IMG/VR virus record: IMGVR_UViG_2609460125_000009
Reading direction: 5' to 3' (one strand)
Source: a virus
Taxonomy: Duplodnaviria > Heunggongvirae > Uroviricota > Caudoviricetes
DNA length: 64,000 nt
Made by a program: the position numbers and the translations under genes. The number at the start of each line of letters is the position of its first letter. Position 1 is the first letter of the stretch. This document shows, piece after piece, positions 9,225-64,000 of this stretch. The notes beneath the pieces were generated by a model that did no database searches, was not told the DNA's origin, and saw only the letters and a program-made list of their open reading frames with translations.

Positions 9225-9299
9225 GATGGTGTAGCTCAGCGGTAGAGCAGTTGGCTGTTAACCAACTGGTCGGTGGTTCGAATCCACCCACCATCGCCA
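9225..9299 (+). tRNA. tRNA-Asn (anticodon GTT)
   Basis: Manually folded cloverleaf: acceptor gatggtg/caccatc, D-arm gctc-agcggta-gagc, anticodon loop ctGTTaa, T-arm ggtgg-ttcgaat-ccacc, discriminator G + CCA. Confidence 0.85.
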
Positions 9300-9304
9300 A
9301 TTTA

Positions 9305-9391
9305 GGGGAGTTAGTCCGTAGAGGTAGCGGGGTAGACTGTAAATCTACTGTCATTGCGACTCGGGTGGTTCGACTCCATCACTCCCCACCA
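9305..9391 (+). tRNA. tRNA-Tyr (anticodon GTA), type II with long variable arm
   Basis: acceptor ggggagt/actcccc, anticodon arm gtaga-ctGTAaa-tctac, T-arm ggtgg-ttcgact-ccatc, discriminator A + CCA; D-arm pairing less clean. Confidence 0.75.
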
Positions 9392-9395
9392 AATT

Positions 9396-9471
9396 GCCGG
9401 TTTAGCTCAGTTGGTAGAGCGCCTGCCTTGTAAGCAGGATGTCAGCGGTTCGATCCCGTTAACCGGCACCA
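9396..9471 (+). tRNA. tRNA-Thr (anticodon TGT)
   Basis: acceptor gccggtt/aaccggc, D-arm gctc-agttggta-gagc, anticodon arm cctgc-ctTGTaa-gcagg, T-arm agcgg-ttcgatc-ccgtt, A + CCA. Confidence 0.85.
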
Positions 9472-9835
9472 ACACAACAGGTAAGAGCATTGGGCGAATC
9501 GGCGATACTGACCCACAAGCCCGTAAATCGATAGAGTCAGACCAGTGCTCTTACCGTTGTGAGGAAGTGCAGCTCTTTGAAGCAACCAGAAGATAAGCAT
9601 CTGGCTTCACAACACAACGATAAGATCATTACGGTTAATCGTCGTTCATGTGCACAATGACTGGTCGAAAGGTAGTGATCTTACCGTTGTGGTGGATTCG
9701 CAGACTGATGCGATAGCTTTCTTGGATGTTAGGGAAATGCGGCCGCAAATCTTCCCTTTCGCGAGCGGTGATCGTCCGTAGTCCTAATTGGCTGCACCGT
9801 ATGCCGGAGATTCAGTACCGGCCACCACAACGGCC

Positions 9836-9922
9836 GGAGAGTAGGGAGCATGGTGCTCAAGCGGTCTTGAAAACCGTCCCATTGCGCAAGCGATGATGGT
9901 TCGATTCCATTACTCTCCGCCA
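9836..9922 (+). tRNA. tRNA-like gene, probably tRNA-Ser (anticodon TGA), non-canonical D-arm
   Basis: acceptor ggagagt/actctcc, anticodon arm gcggt-ctTGAaa-accgt, long variable arm, T-arm gatgg-ttcgatt-ccatt, G + CCA; D-arm does not fold cleanly. Confidence 0.45.
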
Positions 9923-24934: not shown

Positions 24935-27274
24935 ATGGCAAAAGGAAAATCCGCACTGGCACTTGCTCTGAAAAAGAAAATCGGTAGCAACGACGAAATT
25001 CAGAAAGTAACTCATTGGATTGACACAGGCTTTCCTCCGTTAAACAAAGCTATTTCCGGTCGTTACGATGGCGGTTTCCCATGTGGTCGTATCGTAGAAG
25101 TATTCGGGCCACCAAGCGCGGGGAAATGTGTTACCGCAGACACCATGCTGCTGACGGAGCGTGGAATGGTAACAGTGAAAGAGTTGTTTGAGATTGAAGG
25201 GTACAAAGCGACATGCACTACTCGCGATGTAGAGCATAACGTTGGACTCATCAATGAAAATGGCGTGATAGAGAAGACCTCACACCTGACATGGAACAAC
25301 CGTCGCAAATTCAAGCGTATTAAGCTGGCATCAGGCGGTTATATCGAGGCTACGTTCCGTCACCCAATCCGTGTGGTTGACGACTTAGGTAATGTCGTCT
25401 GGCGACATGCTGAAAAAATCAGTGTAGGCGACACGATTCCTTCAATGGTTGGCACACATCAATTCGGCGATCAGCACCTGGATGCCAATATCGCAAAACT
25501 GATGGGCTATTTAATTGCTGACGGATACGTGGCCTCTGAAAATTCAGTGAATTTTTCTAACACAGATCCTTTCATCAAGGATGAGTACTACCGCCTCATT
25601 TCGCTGGTATCAGACAAGATGCCAGTTACGAGAAAACATAACGGCTCGGAAGACCATGTGCTGTTTAGCAAAGAGGTGCGTTCGCTGCTTTTTAAAGAAT
25701 ATGGTCTGGAGTATGAGAAAGCTGCTGGCAAGCAGGTTCCGTTGAGTGTGCGTCGCGCCAATAGCGAGGCTCAAATTGCATTCCTTCGCGGCTACTTTGA
25801 GCTGGAATGCCACGTCAATGATGGTCGCTGCATTGAGGTTGTGAGCGCGAGTGGGCTGCTGCTACAGCAAATTCGCCTCATGCTCCTGAATCTGGGGATT
25901 ACGTCAACTATCTCTGAAAAACACGTCGCGGGTTATGAAAATACATATTACCGGCTGTCATTCAGTGGCTCTAATTACGACCTTTTTCTGTCAACGATTG
26001 GTTTCGAATCTCCGGCACGTTTATCAGTGGCAACCAAACGGGACATTGGTTTTGACCGCACTTACTCAGGCTATGTTCCGCACATCAGCGGCTTAGTGAA
26101 ATCACTCTACGAGTCGCTCACCAAGACCACCCGTGAAGACTACGCTCTGGTAGACCACGTTATTGGCCGCGGCGATCGTGTCGGAATAGACAAACTGCGA
26201 GAAATCTATGTCTCCTTCATTGGCAGAAAGAATCGTTTTAACGAGCATCTGTTTGCACAACTGGCAGCGGTAATTGGCTCTAACTTGTTCTACGACGAAG
26301 TCGTGGCTATTGAGGAAGGTGAAGCACCAACGTTCGACGTAGCGATGCCGGAAACACACTCTTTCTGGTCTAACGGGATTATCAGCCACAACACATTCCT
26401 TGCAACAGCAGCGATGATCTCCGCTCAAAAACAAGATGGTCTGGCGGTATTCCTCGATCATGAAAACAGTTTTGACGTTGGCCTGGCTGTAGCCAATGGC
26501 CTGAACGCAGATGAGGATGACGGTCAGTGGGTATACAAGCAGCCAGATACCTTCGAAGACTCTGTAGAGTTGATCGGCACAATACTTAAATTGGTTCGTG
26601 ATGAAGAGCTTATCCCCGAATCAGCACCTATCTGTATCGTGGCTGACTCTCTTGCGTCTATGGTTCCGAACTCCAAAGCCGAGAAGTTCGAAAAGATGGC
26701 TGAAGGCACAGCCAAAGACAAAGATCAGCTAAACATGAACGACAATACGGCACTGGCTCGTGCGACGAGTGCGAACTTCCCTACTCTGGCTTTGTGGGCA
26801 CGCAAATACAACGCCTGCATCATCTTCTTGAATCAGGTTCGCACAAAAATCGGTGTAATGTTTGGCGACCCTACTACGTCGCCAGGTGGAGATTCACCGA
26901 AGTTCTACGCTTCTGTACGTATCCGTCTTGGTGCATCGGTGATGAAGGATGGTAAAGAGAAGATCGGCCAGGACGTAGGCGCAGAATGCATCAAAAACAA
27001 AGTTGCACCACCGTATGGCAAATGCACCTGGAAATTCTACTTCGATCCTACTCGTGGCCTCGACGTTATCGAGTCGCTCGTCGAGTACATGCTGGAAGAA
27101 GGATACCTGCCAAAGAACGCCAGCGGTCGAGTAGAAATTGGTGACAAGAAATACACCAAATCACAGATCGTCGAGATGTATCGGGAGAAGCCACTAGCTG
27201 AAATCATTGCGGCTTTACAGGCAATCGACGACCGGAGATCAAAAGACAATCCCACCGAGTCAGTAGAAGAGTAA
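24935..27274 (+). CDS. RecA-family recombinase interrupted by an intein
   Basis: Extein: GPPSAGK|TFLATAAM P-loop and FLNQVRTKIGVMFGDPTTSPGGDSPKFYASVR, closely matching the RecA core; 422-aa insertion between K64 and T. Confidence 0.85.
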   Translation: MAKGKSALALALKKKIGSNDEIQKVTHWIDTGFPPLNKAISGRYDGGFPCGRIVEVFGPPSAGKCVTADTMLLTERGMVTVKELFEIEGYKATCTTRDVEHNVGLINENGVIEKTSHLTWNNRRKFKRIKLASGGYIEATFRHPIRVVDDLGNVVWRHAEKISVGDTIPSMVGTHQFGDQHLDANIAKLMGYLIADGYVASENSVNFSNTDPFIKDEYYRLISLVSDKMPVTRKHNGSEDHVLFSKEVRSLLFKEYGLEYEKAAGKQVPLSVRRANSEAQIAFLRGYFELECHVNDGRCIEVVSASGLLLQQIRLMLLNLGITSTISEKHVAGYENTYYRLSFSGSNYDLFLSTIGFESPARLSVATKRDIGFDRTYSGYVPHISGLVKSLYESLTKTTREDYALVDHVIGRGDRVGIDKLREIYVSFIGRKNRFNEHLFAQLAAVIGSNLFYDEVVAIEEGEAPTFDVAMPETHSFWSNGIISHNTFLATAAMISAQKQDGLAVFLDHENSFDVGLAVANGLNADEDDGQWVYKQPDTFEDSVELIGTILKLVRDEELIPESAPICIVADSLASMVPNSKAEKFEKMAEGTAKDKDQLNMNDNTALARATSANFPTLALWARKYNACIIFLNQVRTKIGVMFGDPTTSPGGDSPKFYASVRIRLGASVMKDGKEKIGQDVGAECIKNKVAPPYGKCTWKFYFDPTRGLDVIESLVEYMLEEGYLPKNASGRVEIGDKKYTKSQIVEMYREKPLAEIIAALQAIDDRRSKDNPTESVEE
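25127..26392 (+). mobile_element. intein with LAGLIDADG homing-endonuclease domain inside the RecA P-loop
   Basis: Begins with Cys directly after GPPSAGK, ends ...SHN followed by Thr; internal LAGLIDADG-type motifs MGYLIADGYV and FLRGYFELECHV. Confidence 0.75.
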
Positions 27275-43597: not shown

Positions 43598-44011
43598 ATG
43601 GCAATAGGTATGTATGTCTTATGCGAAATTGAAGGTGTGCTGGCAAATACCAGCCATCGTAAATCTGTATCTGACGCGGATGCAGGCCAGCTCATTGCCG
43701 GTGATGAACTCATTTTCCCCACCAGCCGTATGTTGCGTGGTTTTGCTCGCTCAGGGGCTGAAGTGGTGCTTATCAGTAGCCGCTCTGAAACTCTTGAAGC
43801 GCCCACTAAACGATGGTTGAAAGATTTTGGTGTTGATTACGACTGGCTTCATCTCGTACCGAATGGCGTCAGTTATGAGAAGCATATTAAGCGCACATTA
43901 GCGGAGCATAAAGGCGATCTGCTTATCGCTGCGCTGGTGCACGATCCTCGACTCCGTGCCGCTTTAGCTGACTCTCATCATAGACCGGTCATCTATGAGG
44001 TGAGCAAATGA
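43598..44011 (+). CDS. hypothetical protein
   Basis: ORF with ATG 2 nt after thyA stop; start uncertain. Confidence 0.4.
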   Translation: MAIGMYVLCEIEGVLANTSHRKSVSDADAGQLIAGDELIFPTSRMLRGFARSGAEVVLISSRSETLEAPTKRWLKDFGVDYDWLHLVPNGVSYEKHIKRTLAEHKGDLLIAALVHDPRLRAALADSHHRPVIYEVSK

Positions 44012-44484
44012 AGATGATAGCTGCTGTTGGCCGTAACTATGAGATCGGCATAGCGAACGAACTGCCCTGGCGTTGTTCTACCGATCTGAAGCTATTTAAG
44101 AGACTCACCAAAAACGCCACTGTCGTTATGGGGCGTAAAACGATGGAAAGTCTCAAACGCCCTCTTCCAGAGCGTCATAACCTCGTTTTGACGCGCTCTC
44201 ATGGCTTTGTACCAAATGGATTCTACCCTGCTGGTGTGGATGATGTGTTGCGATTACCAGAGCCTGTGTGGGTGATTGGCGGGGAACAAATTTACTCGCT
44301 ATTCATGCCGCATGTTGAAGAGATTTGGCTCTCCCACATCGGCGTTGATGTGCCAAACGCCGATGCATTCTTCCCGGCAAGCATGATGCGTAATTTAGGC
44401 TTTGTGCCTGTTGAAACAGTTTTTACCCAACGAGCCAGCGAGGAAGAGCTTGGCTTTTCGCAGATCGTATACAGAAGGTCGTAA
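44008..44484 (+). CDS. folA: dihydrofolate reductase
   Basis: MIAAVGRNYEIG ... LPW ... VVMGRKT ... VIGGEQIY motifs. Confidence 0.85.
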   Translation: MKMIAAVGRNYEIGIANELPWRCSTDLKLFKRLTKNATVVMGRKTMESLKRPLPERHNLVLTRSHGFVPNGFYPAGVDDVLRLPEPVWVIGGEQIYSLFMPHVEEIWLSHIGVDVPNADAFFPASMMRNLGFVPVETVFTQRASEEELGFSQIVYRRS

Positions 44485-52671: not shown

Positions 52672-54357
52672 ATGAATACAGCCCTTTCTATCATCGACGA
52701 TGCCAGCTCAAACACGGCTATCGACTATCGTCAGGAAATGAATGTCATCCACGAAATTGTGGCCGAGTGCGAGAAAGAGATCGCCTTCATGTATCAGGTA
52801 CACGACTTCGTTTATGGCGACGAACGCCACAACATGATTAATCGCCTGCTGAGACTAAACCATCGACCAGATGAAGATCGCTCGCGTTTAAATCGAGGTT
52901 GGTTGGATAAAGTCGATCTGGAATGGGTGAAACAGAATATTTGGGCCGAGTACTGGAGGAAGGTCACGGACATGACTAACGTTTTGCTGATCATGCCAGC
53001 TTCCCGTCGAGATGAGTGGCGCGAGCAGTTTATAGAGGGCAAACAGGAAGTCATCAAAACTGACAGAACCGGCTACCAGATGAAGGTTAAAGAGTTCGTT
53101 GGTGTACCGGAGTTCAAAGCAGAAACGGTCATACCCACGATGCTTAATTTGCTGAATGACAGGCACAAATATCTCTCTGAGCGCGTGTATGGCTTGTTTA
53201 AGGCGCTGAGTCCTGCGCACAAGACAAATAAGACAAACGGTTTCAGCGAGCGTCTGATAATCGCTGACTGCATTTCTGATTTCTGGCGGGACAGCGTTAG
53301 CGTGAACTATCGCAAAGAGGACTACATCGACGATCTGCGTGTCTTGCTTCATTTCTTCGCGCACAAAGAATTTATTACCATCAACCGCACTGCTGAGGTG
53401 CTATCAGCTGCGTATAGGGCAAACGACTGCCAGACCGGTGACTGGATGAACGTCGATGGAAATCTGATGCGCGTGAAGATGTTCAAGAACGGCAACGTTC
53501 ACTTTGAAATACATCCTGACGTGGCCTGGAAGTTGAATGAGGTGCTGGCTTACAGTATGCCTGCTGCAATCCCCGCGCCATGCCGAACTGCGCCAAAAAC
53601 ACGGGCACCAAAGCAGTTCGGTTTAATCCAGAAGACGATCTCCGTGCCGGTTCGCACTGCGCTTCGTGACGGGCGATTGAGCAAAGACAAAGGCGTATGG
53701 TACTTCTCTGATTCAGCTCTCCAGAAGTCGCAGGTGGAAGAGCTTGAGCGCACACTGAGCTTCATTGGCGGCGTGCAGGAGAAAAAGCACTGGCAGTTCC
53801 CGTATGAGATCGGCCATACGCTAAATACGATTGTGGCTACCGGATTAATACCGGATACAAAATCACACCAGTTCTACCCTACCCCACGCTTGATTGCTGA
53901 GTACGTTGCCAGAGCCACTGAATTGAAGTCTGGTGAGAAGCTGCTGGAGCCTCAAGCCGGACGTGGGGATCTTCTGGCCTATATCAACGCCGATCTGGAA
54001 GATGTTACCTGCATAGAAATCGCACCTCTCTTCGCTGATATCCTGCGCGGAAAAGGGTATACGAACACGATTTGCTGCGACTTCATAAAGTGGTCTGAGG
54101 ACAACGTAGGTTATCAGTTCGACAAAATCGTTATGAACCCGCCGTACTCGCTTGGTCGTCATAGAGAGCACACGCTGGCTGCGCTGGGGCATCTGAAAGT
54201 CGGCGGGCGTCTTGTAGCAGTATTGCCGGGCACTGCGCCAATACTGGACTGGATGACGATGGATAATTACGTTTATGCCAGAGGGAAGTCGTTTACCAAC
54301 GAGTTTGAAGACACAGGGATCACAGTCAGCGTATACGTTTTCAAACGCGTTAAATGA
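52672..54357 (+). CDS. fusion protein with C-terminal N6-adenine DNA methyltransferase domain
   Basis: C-terminal SAM-binding LLEPQAGRGDL and catalytic NPPY; N-terminal ~400 aa of unknown function. Confidence 0.65.
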   Translation: MNTALSIIDDASSNTAIDYRQEMNVIHEIVAECEKEIAFMYQVHDFVYGDERHNMINRLLRLNHRPDEDRSRLNRGWLDKVDLEWVKQNIWAEYWRKVTDMTNVLLIMPASRRDEWREQFIEGKQEVIKTDRTGYQMKVKEFVGVPEFKAETVIPTMLNLLNDRHKYLSERVYGLFKALSPAHKTNKTNGFSERLIIADCISDFWRDSVSVNYRKEDYIDDLRVLLHFFAHKEFITINRTAEVLSAAYRANDCQTGDWMNVDGNLMRVKMFKNGNVHFEIHPDVAWKLNEVLAYSMPAAIPAPCRTAPKTRAPKQFGLIQKTISVPVRTALRDGRLSKDKGVWYFSDSALQKSQVEELERTLSFIGGVQEKKHWQFPYEIGHTLNTIVATGLIPDTKSHQFYPTPRLIAEYVARATELKSGEKLLEPQAGRGDLLAYINADLEDVTCIEIAPLFADILRGKGYTNTICCDFIKWSEDNVGYQFDKIVMNPPYSLGRHREHTLAALGHLKVGGRLVAVLPGTAPILDWMTMDNYVYARGKSFTNEFEDTGITVSVYVFKRVK

Positions 54358-54418: not shown

Positions 54419-55123
54419 ATGAACAACCTCCAGTTAGAGCATTTTAACGTCACAGGCCATTCTGATTTTCCTTTCAAGTTTACATTGAAAGGTTATGCAG
54501 AGGATGCGGTAGGCCAGATCATTATTGATAAAGGCATCGTTAAGTTTGAGGGGGATTTTGATGAATCCGCGAAAACATTCATAGACTTCGTTGCCAAACG
54601 TTGGAGCGAGCAATGGAAAAACCTGGAAAAGCGCGCCAATGAGTTTGATCGGTTCATGGATGCAATGGATACAGCAAAAGAGGCTCTTGATGCCGGGACT
54701 CCGTTAGATCTGGAGTCACTTTTCAACGGCGAAGTGGCCTCTGCGATGTTCGCCACCATGTTCGCGGGTGAGTTCGTCCGCAGCGGTGCCAAAAACTACC
54801 TTGAGCTGGATTACAACGTCCCTGCAATTGGCGATTTCGTCGTTACCATCCAACGCAAAGAAGGTAAGACGCCAGGTGAACGCGTCGCAGAGCTTGAGGC
54901 CGTTGTGGATCAGCGTAACGGAGAGTGTGACCGTTTGATCAACGAGCTTCATGCACTTCGGGAAGAAAGAATATGTGCGGGTAGCAATACACGTAATGCA
55001 GCGGATATCTACTTCCAGTTAGTTGAGGAATGCCAGATTCCACCAGGTGGCTCTCTTGTCGATTACGTCAGACATTTAATGGCGGAAGTTAACTCCAGCC
55101 ATAAAGATGGTGAGGTGCGCTGA
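54419..55123 (+). CDS. hypothetical protein
   Basis: 234 aa; conserved GAGAAAAACACATG context. Confidence 0.55.
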   Translation: MNNLQLEHFNVTGHSDFPFKFTLKGYAEDAVGQIIIDKGIVKFEGDFDESAKTFIDFVAKRWSEQWKNLEKRANEFDRFMDAMDTAKEALDAGTPLDLESLFNGEVASAMFATMFAGEFVRSGAKNYLELDYNVPAIGDFVVTIQRKEGKTPGERVAELEAVVDQRNGECDRLINELHALREERICAGSNTRNAADIYFQLVEECQIPPGGSLVDYVRHLMAEVNSSHKDGEVR

Positions 55124-55503
55124 TGTTTGGCATTGACGCACAGCGTATAGCCGCTTTTGCAAAAAGCCCTCTTGATAATCCCTTGTCTCGTAGTGAGCAA
55201 ATGGAGCTGGCAAGGCTTTTTCTTCACATTCAAAAACAGGCAGACATTTTCAATAACATGCCTAATCAACCTATTCTGGATGGTCACATCCAGATGGTCA
55301 TTAACAGTCATGAGAAAGGCTGGGCTGCAATCGTCCCCTGCACAATTACATACAAGTTGGCGAAAGAGGTTCAAGAGTTTCGAAAAGCCAGTGTCGAATC
55401 GGAGTCTACCAAAGCCGCAATAAACACTCTTATTCGCATGGGGTTCACATGGACCGGTGGAGCCTACTGGCAAGCACCTCACCCCATTTTATCCGGCAAT
55501 TAG
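55123..55503 (+). CDS. hypothetical protein
   Basis: 126 aa; GGTGAGG RBS; overlapping stop/start. Confidence 0.5.
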   Translation: MFGIDAQRIAAFAKSPLDNPLSRSEQMELARLFLHIQKQADIFNNMPNQPILDGHIQMVINSHEKGWAAIVPCTITYKLAKEVQEFRKASVESESTKAAINTLIRMGFTWTGGAYWQAPHPILSGN

Positions 55504-55622
55504 ACGCTACAAATCCTTCGGCATGAATAAATAAAGGCCATAAGTTGTGGCCTTAAATAAATTGTTTTCTACCTTTTCTTATTTGTGAAAATAACAACAA
55601 CTAGAAAACAACGGAGTTAAGA

Positions 55623-56264
55623 ATGTCTAGTATTTCCGAAGCTCATATGTTCGCCGCTGGCGCTCATGGTGGCGTTGGTCAGAAAAGAAAATATACCGGC
55701 GAAGACTACATCAACCACCCGGTTGCTGTCCGAGAGATTGTTGCATTGCATGACGGAACCGTGGAGATGCAAATCGCGGCGCTTCTGCATGATGTGGTCG
55801 AAGACACCCATGTAACCATAGAGATGGTTCGTGATCACTTCGGTGAGCGCGTAGCTGAAATGGTTCAGGCTCTGACCAACATTGCAAGGCCAGAAGACGG
55901 CAATCGAATACAGCGTTTCATCATCAATGTCCGGGAGCTGGAGCAAAATCTCGACATGCAGACGCGCATGATCAAGCTGGCTGACCTGCTCGACAATACC
56001 TCTTCTATCGTGAGTCGCGATCCCGAGTTTTCAGCTGTCTACCTCGCAGAGAAAGAACTGATGCTGGACGTACTCTTTCACGGCAAAGAGATTGGTGCCA
56101 ACGCTGATGTTGTCGAGTACATGGAGAGGATAGGTATAGAACACCCGTTGCTATTAAGCGCAATGGCGAAAGTCACTGAAGGTATTGCGCTTCTGAAACC
56201 GGTACACATCAAACGTTATGAAAAACACAAATCGCTGATCTGGAGCGCGTGGGAGGCTGCATGA
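55623..56264 (+). CDS. HD-domain phosphohydrolase, SpoT-hydrolase-like (small alarmone hydrolase candidate)
   Basis: AALLHDVVEDT matches the RelA/SpoT hydrolase HD motif; ~210 aa with no synthetase domain. Confidence 0.65.
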   Translation: MSSISEAHMFAAGAHGGVGQKRKYTGEDYINHPVAVREIVALHDGTVEMQIAALLHDVVEDTHVTIEMVRDHFGERVAEMVQALTNIARPEDGNRIQRFIINVRELEQNLDMQTRMIKLADLLDNTSSIVSRDPEFSAVYLAEKELMLDVLFHGKEIGANADVVEYMERIGIEHPLLLSAMAKVTEGIALLKPVHIKRYEKHKSLIWSAWEAA

Positions 56265-56803
56265 AGGTCGAAAAAATAGATGTTCTTTCCTTTGTGCTGA
56301 CGGATCTGGAACGCCTCGATCCGGTTCGAGTGATGATTGAAAACTACGAACCTGGTAAGGGAAGAATCACCATCATCTGCTACGGAAAAGCGTGGACTGC
56401 GGCTTGGTTTGCTATGGGCGGTGATGATGTGCAGACGTTCATTAAGCGGGTCAGCAACGAGTATCTAATCGGCTATTTCGACTCTCAACTGCGAAGCACG
56501 GTCGACGATGACAACGATGCAAATCTGCTTTTCGTGAAGTCAGAAATCATAAAGTTACGAAGAGAGAGAGAAATCGACGCCGTACTGGCTCGTGAAATGT
56601 GGGACGAGGCGGAAAACACCGATGACGTAAAAGAAAGCTGCTGTTGTTTCGGCGTCGGTAACAAACTGCTGAATCTCTTTGGTGATGATCCGTGGTATGC
56701 CGACTGGCCAACGGTACCAAACCCGAAATACCAGTATCTGGAACGCATTGTGAACGCGGTACGTGAAGGGCTGAAAGAGTTAGATAAGTTAGAGGCATCG
56801 TAA
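56261..56803 (+). CDS. hypothetical protein
   Basis: Start moved to the ATG with GGGAGG RBS. Confidence 0.5.
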   Translation: MKVEKIDVLSFVLTDLERLDPVRVMIENYEPGKGRITIICYGKAWTAAWFAMGGDDVQTFIKRVSNEYLIGYFDSQLRSTVDDDNDANLLFVKSEIIKLRREREIDAVLAREMWDEAENTDDVKESCCCFGVGNKLLNLFGDDPWYADWPTVPNPKYQYLERIVNAVREGLKELDKLEAS

Positions 56804-57303
56804 TGAGAGAGAAAATCAAGAACCCGGTCGTCGTATTGTATAAACGGGAAACCAGCGATTCTTATGCGGTATCCATCACTGATGGAAGCCAGAACATGCA
56901 CGATGGTCTGCTAATGGCCTCCGTATCTCCTGATGATTCTGACTACCCTTTCGCCACTTTCGCTATGGTTGGTTACTACATGGCTGCCGAAATTGAGAAG
57001 TTGCGAGCGCAGAGAGACGCATTAGCGGCGGAGAATGCAGCCCTGAAAGAATCTGAGCGAGCATTCGATGCGATGTGTGCCGAGGAACACGGAGATAATT
57101 GGGTTAGCGAATTAACGGAGACTCCAGCCACCGATGCTTTTCTGGCTGAAGTACGTGCGCAGGGCGTGGATATGGCTCGTAACGCGATGATTGATTTTGT
57201 TGATGGTGAAGTTGGGCCAAACAAGAACGTTCCGGGGCTGATTAGAGGCGCAGAGATATGCGTAAGTATTGCTGAACAGCTTCGTAAAGGAGTCATCCAG
57301 TGA
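56803..57303 (+). CDS. hypothetical protein
   Basis: 166 aa; GAGG RBS. Confidence 0.5.
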   Translation: MREKIKNPVVVLYKRETSDSYAVSITDGSQNMHDGLLMASVSPDDSDYPFATFAMVGYYMAAEIEKLRAQRDALAAENAALKESERAFDAMCAEEHGDNWVSELTETPATDAFLAEVRAQGVDMARNAMIDFVDGEVGPNKNVPGLIRGAEICVSIAEQLRKGVIQ

Positions 57304-57701
57304 GCAAGATTGACTATCAGGCACTGCGTGAGGCGGCAGAGCGTGCAATTCCGGCAATGGAACGCCTGTTAATGTTGCCAGTTGATGATGATCTGATATG
57401 CGAACAGGAACTTAAAGATAGCGGTGTTGATATTGATGCCCTCAACGCCTTCAAATTTCTGGCCGGACCAGAAACCGTGCTGGCACTACTGGATGAGATC
57501 AACGCATTAGAGGAAACGCGTATCAACGATGTTTGCCGTATTGCGGAACTAACAAAACAACTGGAGTTGGCAAAATCAAAACTCAACGAGCAGCGTGAGT
57601 ATTACGAGGGCGTTATCTCGGATGGAAGTAAGCGCATAGCCGCTCTTCTTCGCAAGGACAATCTTGCCAGCGCCACGAACATTGAAGGTGAAAGAAAATG
57701 A
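57300..57701 (+). CDS. hypothetical protein (GTG start)
   Basis: 133 aa; AGGAG RBS. Confidence 0.45.
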
Positions 57702-58021
57702 CCACATCGCACTCTGCTATTACCCAAGAAAAAGCCTTCAACATACTCGAACGACTAGAGACGCTCGCTACGGAGGAGGAGATATCCCCGGAGAAACTGG
57801 TTGAGTTCAGCCGTGTGATATTGCGTCGCAAGAACGATATGGAGCGGCTGACATCTGGCGCTCCATCCTTATCAGTCAGGCGAACACTTTGTTGCAGCTT
57901 CTGCAACAAATCCCAGTACGCCGTCAAAAAGTTAATTGCTGGGGACGCCGTTTTCATCTGCGACGAGTGTGTGGATGTGTGCAACAGAATTATCCGGGGA
58001 GAGAAAGAGAGATCAGCATGA
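57698..58021 (+). CDS. ClpX N-terminal zinc-binding-domain (ZBD)-like protein without ATPase domain
   Basis: C-terminus [35 protein letters not shown] aligns with the E. coli ClpX ZBD ([34 protein letters not shown]). Confidence 0.7.
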
Positions 58022-61590: not shown

Positions 61591-61616
61591 GGTGGTGCAT
61601 TGCACCACCTTTTTAT
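61591..61616 (+). terminator. hairpin terminator between the umuD'-like gene and mrp
   Basis: ggtggtg-cattg-caccacc then tttttat. Confidence 0.55.
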
Positions 61617-62716
61617 CACACTGCGCGGAATGCGATTTCGCCAGGTATTACTTCACCTTGCCAATACATTTGGGCAGCAACGCGATCTGCGAGGTCACGA
61701 TAAATAGCCGTAAATTCGCTATCTGGACGACTAATAACGGTTGGTGTTCCGTTATCCAGATCTTCACGAAGAGAGATATGAAGTGGCATTTGGCCTAACA
61801 ACTGCGTGTTGTATTTCTCGGCCAGTTTCTGTGCGCCACCGGTGCCAAAAATTGGCTCGTGATGACCGCAGTTACTGCAAATATGCACACTCATGTTTTC
61901 GACGATACCTAGTACCGGCACTTCGACTTTTTCGAACATCACAATGCCTTTCTTCGCATCGATCAGCGCGATGTCTTGCGGCGTAGTTACCACAACCGCA
62001 CCAGTTACAGGAATGTTCTGCGCCAGCGTCAATTGAATATCACCAGTGCCCGGCGGCATATCGAGAACGAGATAGTCCAGATCAGGCCACAGTGTTTCCT
62101 GCAACATCTGCATCAGCGCCTTGCTGGCCATCGGTCCACGCCACACCATTGCATTGTCGTCGGTGACCAGATAACCAATAGAGTTGGTTGCCAGGCCATG
62201 AGACATGATAGGTGCCATGTGAGTACCGTCCGGTGAGGTTGGACGTTGGTTTTCCGCGCCCAGCATGGTTGGAATTGATGGACCATAGATATCGGCATCC
62301 AAAATACCAACTTTCGCACCTTCAGCAGCCAAAGCCAGTGCCAAGTTTACTGCTGTGGACGATTTGCCTACACCGCCCTTGCCTGAGCTTACGGCGATAA
62401 TATTCTTAACACCATTAATGCCTGGTTGGTTTTTGACGCGCTTAAGCGTGGCAATGTTGTACGACAGCTTCCAGTCAATAGCCTTTGCGCCAGTGATACG
62501 GAGCAGATCACCACTACATTGCTCTTTCAGGTCTTCAAAAGGCTTATTCCACACGAAAGGCATGATTAGTTCGACATGCAGTGTGTCATCCATCAACGCA
62601 ACATGGTGTAACGCTTTAAGCGTAGTCAGGTTGTGTTTCAGGGTTGGGTGCTGAAAATTAGCCAGCGTACCGGCTACCATTGCTCTCAGGGCATCCGGCG
62701 ATTTGGACTCGCTCAT
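61616..62716 (-). CDS. mrp: Fe-S cluster carrier ATPase Mrp/ApbC
   Basis: Near-identical to E. coli Mrp over its length (SSGKGGVGKSSTAVNLALALA ... CSNCGHHEPIFG). Confidence 0.95.
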   Translation of the reverse strand: MSESKSPDALRAMVAGTLANFQHPTLKHNLTTLKALHHVALMDDTLHVELIMPFVWNKPFEDLKEQCSGDLLRITGAKAIDWKLSYNIATLKRVKNQPGINGVKNIIAVSSGKGGVGKSSTAVNLALALAAEGAKVGILDADIYGPSIPTMLGAENQRPTSPDGTHMAPIMSHGLATNSIGYLVTDDNAMVWRGPMASKALMQMLQETLWPDLDYLVLDMPPGTGDIQLTLAQNIPVTGAVVVTTPQDIALIDAKKGIVMFEKVEVPVLGIVENMSVHICSNCGHHEPIFGTGGAQKLAEKYNTQLLGQMPLHISLREDLDNGTPTVISRPDSEFTAIYRDLADRVAAQMYWQGEVIPGEIAFRAV

Positions 62717-62873: not shown

Positions 62874-64000
62874 ATGACCCAAGTCGCGAAGAAAATTCTG
62901 GTGACGTGCGCGCTGCCGTACGCTAACGGCTCAATCCACCTCGGCCATATGCTGGAGCACATCCAGGCTGATGTCTGGGTTCGTTACCAGCGAATGCGCG
63001 GCCACGAGGTTAATTTCATCTGTGCCGACGATGCCCACGGTACGCCGATCATGCTGAAAGCACAGCAACTTGGTATCACACCGGAGCAGATGATTGGCGA
63101 AATGAGTCAGGAACACCAGACTGATTTCGCAGGCTTTAACATCAGCTATGACAACTATCACTCGACGCACAGCGAAGAGAACCGTCAGTTGTCTGAGCTT
63201 ATCTATACTCGCCTGAAAGAGAACGGTTTTATTAAAAATCGCACTATCTCTCAGTTGTACGACCCGGAAAAAGGCATGTTCCTGCCGGATCGTTTTGTGA
63301 AAGGCACCTGCCCGAAATGTAAAGCGCCAGATCAATACGGCGATAACTGTGAAGTTTGCGGCGCGACCTACAGCCCGACTGAACTGATCGAGCCGAAATC
63401 GGTGGTTTCTGGTGCTACCCCGGTAATGCGTGATTCTGAACACTTCTTCTTTGATCTGCCCTCTTTCAGCGAAATGTTGCAGGCATGGACCCGCAGCGGT
63501 GCGTTGCAGGAGCAGGTGGCAAACAAAATGCAGGAGTGGTTTGAATCTGGTCTGCAACAGTGGGATATCTCCCGCGACGCACCTTACTTCGGTTTTGAAA
63601 TTCCGAACGCGCCGGGTAAATATTTCTACGTCTGGCTGGACGCACCGATTGGCTACATGGGTTCCTTCAAGAATCTGTGCGACAAGCGCGGCGACACTAC
63701 CAGCTTCGATGAATACTGGAAGAAAGACTCCACCGCCGAGCTGTACCACTTCATCGGTAAAGATATCGTTTACTTCCACAGCCTGTTCTGGCCTGCCATG
63801 CTGGAAGGCAGCAACTTCCGCAAGCCGACCAACCTGTTTGTTCACGGCTATGTGACGGTGAACGGCGCGAAGATGTCCAAGTCTCGCGGCACCTTTATTA
63901 AAGCCAGCACCTGGTTGAATCATTTTGACGCTGACAGCCTGCGTTACTACTACACTGCGAAACTCTCTTCGCGCATTGATGATATCGATCTCAACCTGGA
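62874..64000 (+). CDS. metG: methionyl-tRNA synthetase (5' portion, runs off the window)
   Basis: [46 protein letters not shown]... HIGH-type motif and E. coli MetG N-terminus. Confidence 0.95.

Follow-up and report, generated by a model that had tools for sequence, protein, structure and literature searches.

The window analysed here, a stretch of 64,000 nt of viral DNA, carries at 55623..56264 on the plus strand a gene for a stand-alone hydrolase of the SpoT type. The gene is confirmed as real, and the nature of its product is supported by family membership, catalytic motifs and predicted fold. The gene is the orthologue of SSU5_099, which encodes the enzyme PaSpo-SSU5 of Salmonella phage SSU5, and as the orthologue of a studied enzyme it is an already known kind of gene. 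Probably its product is a Mn2+-dependent 3'-pyrophosphohydrolase, i.e. a hydrolase-only RelA/SpoT homologue (RSH) or small alarmone hydrolase (SAH), of the PaSpo subfamily (Atkinson 2011; Jimmy et al. 2020), encoded by an orphan accessory gene which would protect a phage-plasmid from the immunity based on toxic RelA/SpoT-type synthetases (toxSAS).

The original prediction had described an open reading frame of about 210 codons with the motif AALLHDVVEDT at 55623-56264. In our analysis this frame opens with an ATG and codes for 213 aa, and the motif occupies residues 52-62 (nt 55776-55808). A Shine-Dalgarno sequence, GGAG, can be read from the sequence 6 nt before the ATG (55613..55616, plus strand). 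A consensus scan, which returned fewer sites overall than in shuffled controls, gave no sigma-70-like promoter upstream of the gene on the plus strand. Compared with the orthologues of SSU5 and pHCM2, the dN/dS ratio (Nei-Gojobori) was 0.19 for the whole gene; residues 1-140 gave 0.10 and residues 141-213 gave 0.30. This indicates purifying selection with a faster evolving C-terminal third. Given this selection, strongest in the core, and the 1549 homologues found at E <= 1e-5, the frame at 55623-56264 is not a chance ORF.

The expectation that the protein contains the hydrolase HD domain without a synthetase domain, to be checked with HD_4 and RelA/SpoT hydrolase profiles, held in these searches. 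Pfam HD_4 (PF13328) was matched with 67.8 bits (cut-off 27.2, E 1.2e-18) and the generic Pfam HD domain more weakly, both at E <= 6e-6; the other three Pfam families listed for the protein remained below their gathering cut-offs (E 0.06-0.19). The NCBIfam model TIGR00691 (spoT_relA) was matched with E 1.4e-24 at profile positions 1-123 of 687 only, which is the hydrolase part. Since the match is confined to these positions, the protein has no synthetase, TGS or ACT part, and none of these regions was found in the 213 aa with the Pfam and NCBIfam profiles. In the PHROGs collection the protein matched phrog_990, annotated as 'metal-dependent phosphohydrolase' (E 3e-55).

All matches of a sequence search against the PDB were hydrolase domains of Rel or SpoT, or SAHs. 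They included SpoT (7qpr/7qps), Rel of M. tuberculosis (5xnx), MESH1 (3nr1/5vxa), Lmo0812 (4yf1), RelH (7qoc-e) and PaSAH (6yvc), and the matches to SpoT, Rel and MESH1 had E values of 1e-13 to 1e-12. An Aph1-type (p)ppApp-specific hydrolase (7smg) was considered as the closest kin and discarded, its match being much weaker (E 2e-6, 31 bits, Foldseek rank 31). The assignment to the PaSpo subfamily was made via orthology: SSU5_099, which Jimmy et al. placed in PaSpo, is 87% identical and syntenic. The profile matches, the residues of the active site, the predicted fold, the presence of a single domain and the purifying selection all agree, and the classification of the protein as an SAH is therefore supported.

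The six hydrolase motifs of RSH proteins, HD1-HD6 as defined by Bisiak et al. (PMC9293644), were assigned from a HMMER alignment to MESH1, and their conservation was taken from an alignment of 36 homologues with 43-88% identity. HD1 and HD2 lie in RKYTGEDYINH (codons 55686..55718, plus strand) and are represented by R22, the Arg that stacks on the base, and the metal ligand H32. AALLHDVVEDT (codons 55776..55808, plus strand), which was aligned to SpoT, Rel and MESH1, contains the His-Asp pair H56-D57 of HD3, both metal ligands, and the catalytic Glu-Asp pair E60-D61 of HD4, assigned to the nucleophilic attack. HD5 and HD6 lie in KLADLLDN (codons 55974..55997, plus strand), with D121 as a further metal ligand and the Asn N125, respectively. 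The corresponding residues of MESH1 are R24, H35, H61-D62, E65-D66, D122 and N126. In the 36-sequence alignment R22, H32, H56, E60, D61, K118, D121 and N125 are invariant, and D57 is conserved in at least 90% of the sequences. Hence the catalytic His and Asp residues are conserved on alignment, as expected from the original prediction. One position deviates: the residue after D121 is L122, where K/R is usual. This counts against the hydrolase reading, though the active SSU5 protein has the same Leu and the form KLADLLDN of HD5 is common to both proteins. An HD5 variant in which the Asp is combined with a hydrophobic residue has been described (PMC9293644).

The AlphaFold2 model, computed on the alignment of the 36 homologues, has 12 helices and is confident throughout (mean pLDDT 96.4, pTM 0.92). 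When it was compared with the PDB by Foldseek, the top 41 matches (E <= 0.001) were all RSH hydrolases, and the best superposition was obtained with human MESH1 (3nr1; TM 0.82, rmsd 2.4 A). The family members from phage-plasmids have about 210 aa, and many relatives from phages and metagenomes have about 175 aa and lack the last helices.

As MESH1 is among the best matches in both sequence and structure, and as NADPH is dephosphorylated by MESH1 and by XccSAH, the main substrate could in principle be something other than an alarmone, for example NADPH, as for a MESH1-like phosphatase, or another 3'/2'-phosphorylated nucleotide signal. We consider this very improbable. Removal of a 3'-pyrophosphate directly explains the neutralisation of toxSAS by the orthologue, and XccSAH, which does not have the nicotinamide-riboside interaction motif that optimises the binding of NADPH in MESH1, is about 40-fold poorer on NADPH (PMC9765508). 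An NADPH phosphatase activity is possible as a side activity only. MESH1 itself (3nr1, 3nqw, 5vxa; human and Drosophila) shares 26-28% identity with the window protein and also removes the 3'-pyrophosphate of tRNA. Yet it is a metazoan protein regarded as an NADPH phosphatase, its HD5 reads D-K instead of D-L, and the window protein has about 30 more residues at the C-terminus.

PaSpo-SSU5 (SSU5_099, YP_006906731.1) and the window protein are identical at 87% of positions over 213 of 213 residues without gaps; pHCM2 of S. Typhi CT18 encodes a protein identical to PaSpo-SSU5. The SSU5 gene and the window gene sit at corresponding places in phage-plasmids of one family, and the catalytic motifs of their products are identical. 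Of the 27 substitutions between the two proteins, 18 fall after residue 140, in the C-terminal helices. Further differences are the host, which is Salmonella for SSU5 and E. coli for the window element, and the genes downstream of a two-gene block, which at the PaSpo-SSU5 locus are not those of the window. In E. coli PaSpo-SSU5 neutralised all five toxSAS with which it was tested, i.e. CapRel, PhRel2, FaRel2, PhRel and FaRel (Jimmy et al. 2020, PNAS, PMC7229694). FaRel makes (pp)pApp and the other four pyrophosphorylate tRNA (PMC7229694). The enzyme has since served as an expression reagent for CapRelSJ46 (PMC9712102), and it also detoxifies PhRel2 and FaRel2 during protein production, where leaky expression is enough. 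Thus publications already cover the family, the subfamily, the orthologous group and the toxin-neutralising activity, and the enzyme is a routine reagent, so that the gene as such has little discovery value.

These data bear on the further claim of the original prediction that the protein could dismantle alarmone-based responses. The claim is supported in so far as the orthologue neutralises the (pp)pApp-making FaRel together with the four toxSAS that pyrophosphorylate tRNA (PMC7229694). It is less well documented for the housekeeping stringent response based on (p)ppGpp, the best documented targets being the products of toxSAS, among them pyrophosphorylated 3' ends of tRNA.

A mechanism can be proposed by which H32, H56, D57 and D121 would hold the metal, R22 and N125 would position the base, and E60 and D61 would activate a water molecule for the attack on the 3'-diphosphate ester. 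Removal of the 3'-pyrophosphate would undo the effects of the toxic synthetases (CapRel, PhRel, PhRel2, FaRel2, FaRel): pyrophosphorylated 3'-CCA ends of tRNA would be restored and (pp)pApp would be degraded. Probably (p)ppGpp is hydrolysed too. The most likely natural role would be to shield the phage-plasmid from abortive infection mediated by toxSAS when it infects a new host or establishes itself there, and damping of the stringent response may occur as a side effect. We infer the exact substrates of the window protein, the timing of its expression and its role in natural infection. That phages may encode alarmone hydrolases to bypass abortive infection by toxSAS or alarmones is a hypothesis already stated by Jimmy et al. 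(2020). In the literature search the use of a phage SAH as counter-defence in an actual infection was met as hypotheses and genome-annotation remarks only, and no paper reporting it was found.

Several known systems can be compared with the proposed one. PbcSpo, the SAH of Salmonella phage PVP-SE1, is likewise stand-alone and phage-encoded and neutralises all tested toxSAS (PMC7229694); by its description it belongs to another SAH subfamily and to a virulent phage instead of a phage-plasmid. ATfaRel of Cellulomonas marina is also a hydrolase-only RSH and a promiscuous neutraliser of toxSAS products, but it shares an operon with the toxin FaRel, whereas no toxSAS partner is annotated on the element of the window gene. 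It was with MESH1 and ATfaRel, not with PaSpo, that SAHs were found to restore the aminoacylation of FaRel2-modified (3'-pyrophosphorylated) tRNA in vitro. PaSAH of P. aeruginosa (6yvc), RelH of C. glutamicum and L. levettii (7qod, 7qoe) and XccSAH of Xanthomonas have the same fold and catalytic motifs and are promiscuous (p)ppGpp/(p)ppApp hydrolases; they are, however, only 21-24% identical to the window protein and are chromosomal enzymes for housekeeping or self-protection. At HD1 PaSAH has Leu and the window protein Arg; the window protein has its Leu beside the Asp of HD5. The long RSHs SpoT (7qpr) and Rel (5xnx, 1vj7, 6s2t) are the top PDB sequence matches (E 1e-13) and have the same active site, yet their HD domain is coupled to regulating synthetase, TGS and ACT domains, which the window protein does not have.

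The gene had been predicted to lie on a mobile element, and this element can now be named. Positions 55000-57000 are 100% identical to the E. coli plasmid CP099286.1 and 99.8% identical to pECOH89 (NC_023916.1), both of which are non-mobilizable plasmids of about 110 kb, and 87% identical to phage SSU5. A third plasmid, NZ_CP027358.1, is complete (110 kb), 99.8% identical over the same positions, and annotated with genes for capsid, terminase, tape-measure and tail-fibre proteins as well as for RepB, ParB, DnaE, NrdAB and tRNAs. As phage structural genes and plasmid genes are thus combined on one replicon, the window is part of an SSU5-type phage-plasmid.

Because SAHs act as antitoxins in some toxSAS operons, we looked for a toxin on the same element. 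None of ten flanking proteins contains a RelA_SpoT synthetase domain, and no toxSAS or RelA-SpoT synthetase product is listed in the PGAP annotation of the whole 110-kb NZ_CP027358.1. Hence the hydrolase is an orphan and not the antitoxin of a toxin on its own element. A candidate partner might be the downstream gene of 180 aa (56261..56803, plus strand), to which the SAH gene is translationally coupled, since its ATG overlaps the SAH stop codon (ATGA). The protein corresponds to the C-terminal part of phrog_3451 and has no match in Pfam or NCBIfam. The 180-aa gene follows the SAH gene in SSU5 and pHCM2. Yet it was rejected as a conserved partner or toxin, since it is missing next to the homologues of Klebsiella-type phage-plasmids (41-53% identical) and next to those of the phage type, and since phage EC.W1-9 has it without an HD match. 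The view that the SAH is a type IV (enzymatic) antitoxin of a toxSAS module on the same element, like ATfaRel, is therefore largely refuted, and we give it hardly any credence.

The SAH gene and the 180-aa gene together form a variable segment of about 1.2 kb (55596..56802, plus strand), which is replaced in phage Cyrano and in related E. coli phage-plasmids. In alignments with Cyrano and SSU5 the similarity to Cyrano ends after TGTGAAAATAAC (55584-55595) and returns at the next gene, which starts at 56803. The two genes are missing together in the Cyrano type, which would suit a two-gene cassette; this reading was dropped, as the pairing fails more widely. The 119-nt spacer before the SAH gene contains a GC-rich hairpin, AAGGCCATAAGTTGTGGCCTT (55534..55554, no strand assigned), with a 9-bp stem in the RNA fold. 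The fold of its 63-nt context reached a z of -1.9 only, and the hairpin was scored as terminator-like by the consensus scan on the minus strand only. It is kept in SSU5, Cyrano and other relatives with or without an SAH gene next to it, and it is conserved at the borders of modules. The hairpin may be a terminator and module boundary.

The SAH gene is preceded by a gene for a DUF4942/N6-methyltransferase, an orphan N6-methyltransferase, and by ea-type genes, with the same placement in SSU5. The DUF4942 methyltransferase gene is the sole constant neighbour of the SAH homologues and is found on either side of them. One related lineage has a Tad2-like (anti-Thoeris) gene at a distance of 2 kb from the SAH homologue. 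The setting of the SAH gene is a variable early/accessory region. Anti-defence genes tend to lie in such regions.

A part of 55000-57000 has a match in 298 plasmids of PLSDB (Escherichia 151, Enterobacter 81, Salmonella 39, Citrobacter 20, Shigella 6, Kluyvera 1). The SAH gene is matched in 144 of them (Escherichia 49, Enterobacter 41, Salmonella 39, Citrobacter 14, Shigella 1), in 122 over at least 80% of its length. Thus all 39 matching Salmonella plasmids have it, but only a minority of those from E. coli. Of 5426 complete E. coli genomes 36 contain the full gene, in each case on a plasmid, with no chromosomal copy. In most E. coli relatives and many Enterobacter relatives the gene is absent or broken, and at least five different routes of inactivation can be distinguished. 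In the Cyrano type the whole module is replaced. An IS1-associated rearrangement has left the first 43 nt of the gene beside captured apbC-metG, and in Enterobacter a deletion from the middle of the gene to the end of the downstream ORF has left a stump of 118 aa. In-frame chimeras exist as well, with a piece of an AAA ATPase (P0010) or of the ea-type protein encoded upstream (P0012) in place of the N-terminal catalytic motifs. Finally, in a 62%-identical variant from E. coli the aspartate of HD3 is changed to glycine (P0009). Loss by several independent routes indicates a gene that the element can do without and that is of use under certain conditions, as one would expect in an arms race.

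With so many truncated, chimeric or motif-mutated copies among the relatives, it may be asked whether the window copy, too, is a decaying remnant without function. This is extremely unlikely: the copy has its full length and all of its catalytic residues, its core is under the purifying selection described above (dN/dS 0.10), the AlphaFold2 model shows no poorly predicted part, and identical or nearly identical copies occur in dozens of plasmids.

The pattern of loss also bears on the rival explanation which we take most seriously, namely that the main natural substrate is the (p)ppGpp of the host, lowered to keep nucleotide synthesis, transcription and translation going while the element replicates lytically or is maintained as a plasmid. 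The protein belongs to the same enzyme family as the hydrolase domains of SpoT and Rel, and the guanine-contacting residues R22 (HD1) and N125 (HD6) are intact. Promiscuous activity that includes hydrolysis of (p)ppGpp is known from the characterised SAHs XccSAH and MESH1, and alarmone accumulation has been linked to phage infection. Moreover, the element has genes for NrdAB, thymidylate synthase and dihydrofolate reductase (DHFR), which suggests heavy investment in replication. However, SpoT is already present in E. coli, and the literature found contains no biochemistry for PaSpo-SSU5 itself, neither direct hydrolysis of ppGpp nor altered ppGpp pools. In addition, the element has survived repeated loss of the gene, and this agrees better with a benefit that is conditional and depends on defence than with a core need of replication. 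Host (p)ppGpp as the main substrate therefore seems rather unlikely to us, albeit with a real chance of being correct. Action on host (p)ppGpp and action against toxSAS are compatible and do not exclude each other.

Protection from toxSAS immunity, the reading we prefer, can be taken further. In a 2025 DefenseFinder survey of 1227 extracted contigs of the SSU5 group few or no anti-defence genes were detected (10.1101/2025.09.12.675607). From this we conclude that this SAH is not in the current anti-defence catalogues. Tentatively, and at somewhat less than even chances, we propose that PaSpo is an uncatalogued broad-spectrum gene of SSU5-type phage-plasmids for counter-defence against toxSAS, that its patchy occurrence tracks the toxSAS of the hosts, e.g. 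CapRel, and that the fast evolving C-terminal helices, which are absent from the phage SAHs of about 175 aa, tune the recognition of substrates or tRNA. If this is true, PaSpo would fill the anti-defence gap seen in the survey of the SSU5 group. Clinical Salmonella Typhi (pHCM2), Shigella and E. coli commonly carry phage-plasmids of the SSU5 type, and the natural polymorphism in presence or absence of the SAH gene offers ready-made isogenic comparisons for its role during infection.

The gene for the small alarmone hydrolase (HD gene) lies in a variable block, and a conserved element was found at the borders of this block. A GC-rich hairpin, formed by AAGGCCAYNNNTTGTGGCCTT and then AAAnAATTTGTTTT, is located 5' of the HD gene at window positions 55534-55554. 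The same hairpin is present in the relatives SSU5 (locus L001, 6786-6806), pHCM2 (L009, 3798-3818) and Cyrano, which has no HD gene (L002, 3535-3555), as well as in the related locus L004 (3661-3681). It is kept upstream of the HD gene and likewise upstream of any gene standing in its place. In Salmonella/Enterobacter-type elements a second copy closes the variable block on its other side, either after the LprI-family gene or directly before ydfZ. The hairpin looks like a terminator that at the same time marks a module border or a recombination junction.

The upstream 234-aa ea-type protein (54419-55123) matches the PHROG profile phrog_3451 (287 positions) with its N-terminal part (aa 13-101), and the downstream 180-aa protein (56261-56803) matches profile positions 105-282 over its entire length. 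Because the match to one profile is split across two reading frames, these genes, which flank the eaa-like and HD genes, look like halves of a single ancestral gene or like products of mosaic shuffling.

In relatives (proteins P0009, P0010, P0011 and P0012; loci L003 and L004), homologues of the hydrolase gene were inactivated in at least five ways. An IS1-associated truncation left 43 nt of the gene, and another route produced a stump of 118/139 aa. Two in-frame chimeras, one with its N-terminus from an AAA-ATPase (P0010) and one with its N-terminus from an ea-type protein (P0012), have lost the catalytic motifs HD1-HD3. The fifth form combines an active-site variant, HD to HG, with a C-terminal extension.

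Further cargo of the element was identified by correspondence with the annotated, 99.8%-identical plasmid NZ_CP027358.1. By size and synteny, apbC (iron-sulfur carrier; 61616-62716, minus strand) was assigned together with the beginning of metG (methionyl-tRNA synthetase; 62931-63923, minus strand), i. e. host-type housekeeping genes aboard a phage-plasmid; in a related plasmid they adjoin an IS1 remnant. A 158-aa reading frame (44008-44484, plus strand) corresponds in position and size to the gene annotated there as dfrA51, a trimethoprim-resistant dihydrofolate reductase whose presence as a resistance gene on a phage-plasmid has been described (PMC12217456). Within the replication gene block, a 779-aa reading frame (24935-27274, plus strand) corresponds to a gene annotated as LAGLIDADG family homing endonuclease; it may be a free-standing endonuclease or a host gene with an intein.

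The element also carries a tRNA gene cluster with four members, Asn-GTT, Tyr-GTA, Thr-TGT and Ser-TGA (9225-9922, plus strand). PMC11245113 names tRNA-Gly and tRNA-Thr as targets of FaRel2-type toxSAS toxins.

Downstream of the HD gene, a 107-aa protein (57698-58021, plus strand) consists of scarcely anything beyond a C4 zinc finger of the ClpX type (PF06689, E 1e-15) and has no ATPase domain. It could act as a decoy or adaptor for host ClpX.

The sole constant neighbour of the HD gene in E. coli-, Salmonella- and Klebsiella-type elements, among which gene order varies, encodes a 561-aa DUF4942 protein (52672-54357, plus strand) that bears the NPPY motif of N6-adenine methyltransferases in its C-terminal part; its SSU5 counterpart is annotated as a DNA methyltransferase. 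In an SSU5-like lineage, a Tad2-like gene (anti-Thoeris, PF11195) was found at 1063-1377 of locus L013 (a 110.6-kb Logan contig from SRR31304528), about 2 kb upstream of an HD homologue with 41% identity. This proximity suggests that the HD-gene region is an anti-defence island.
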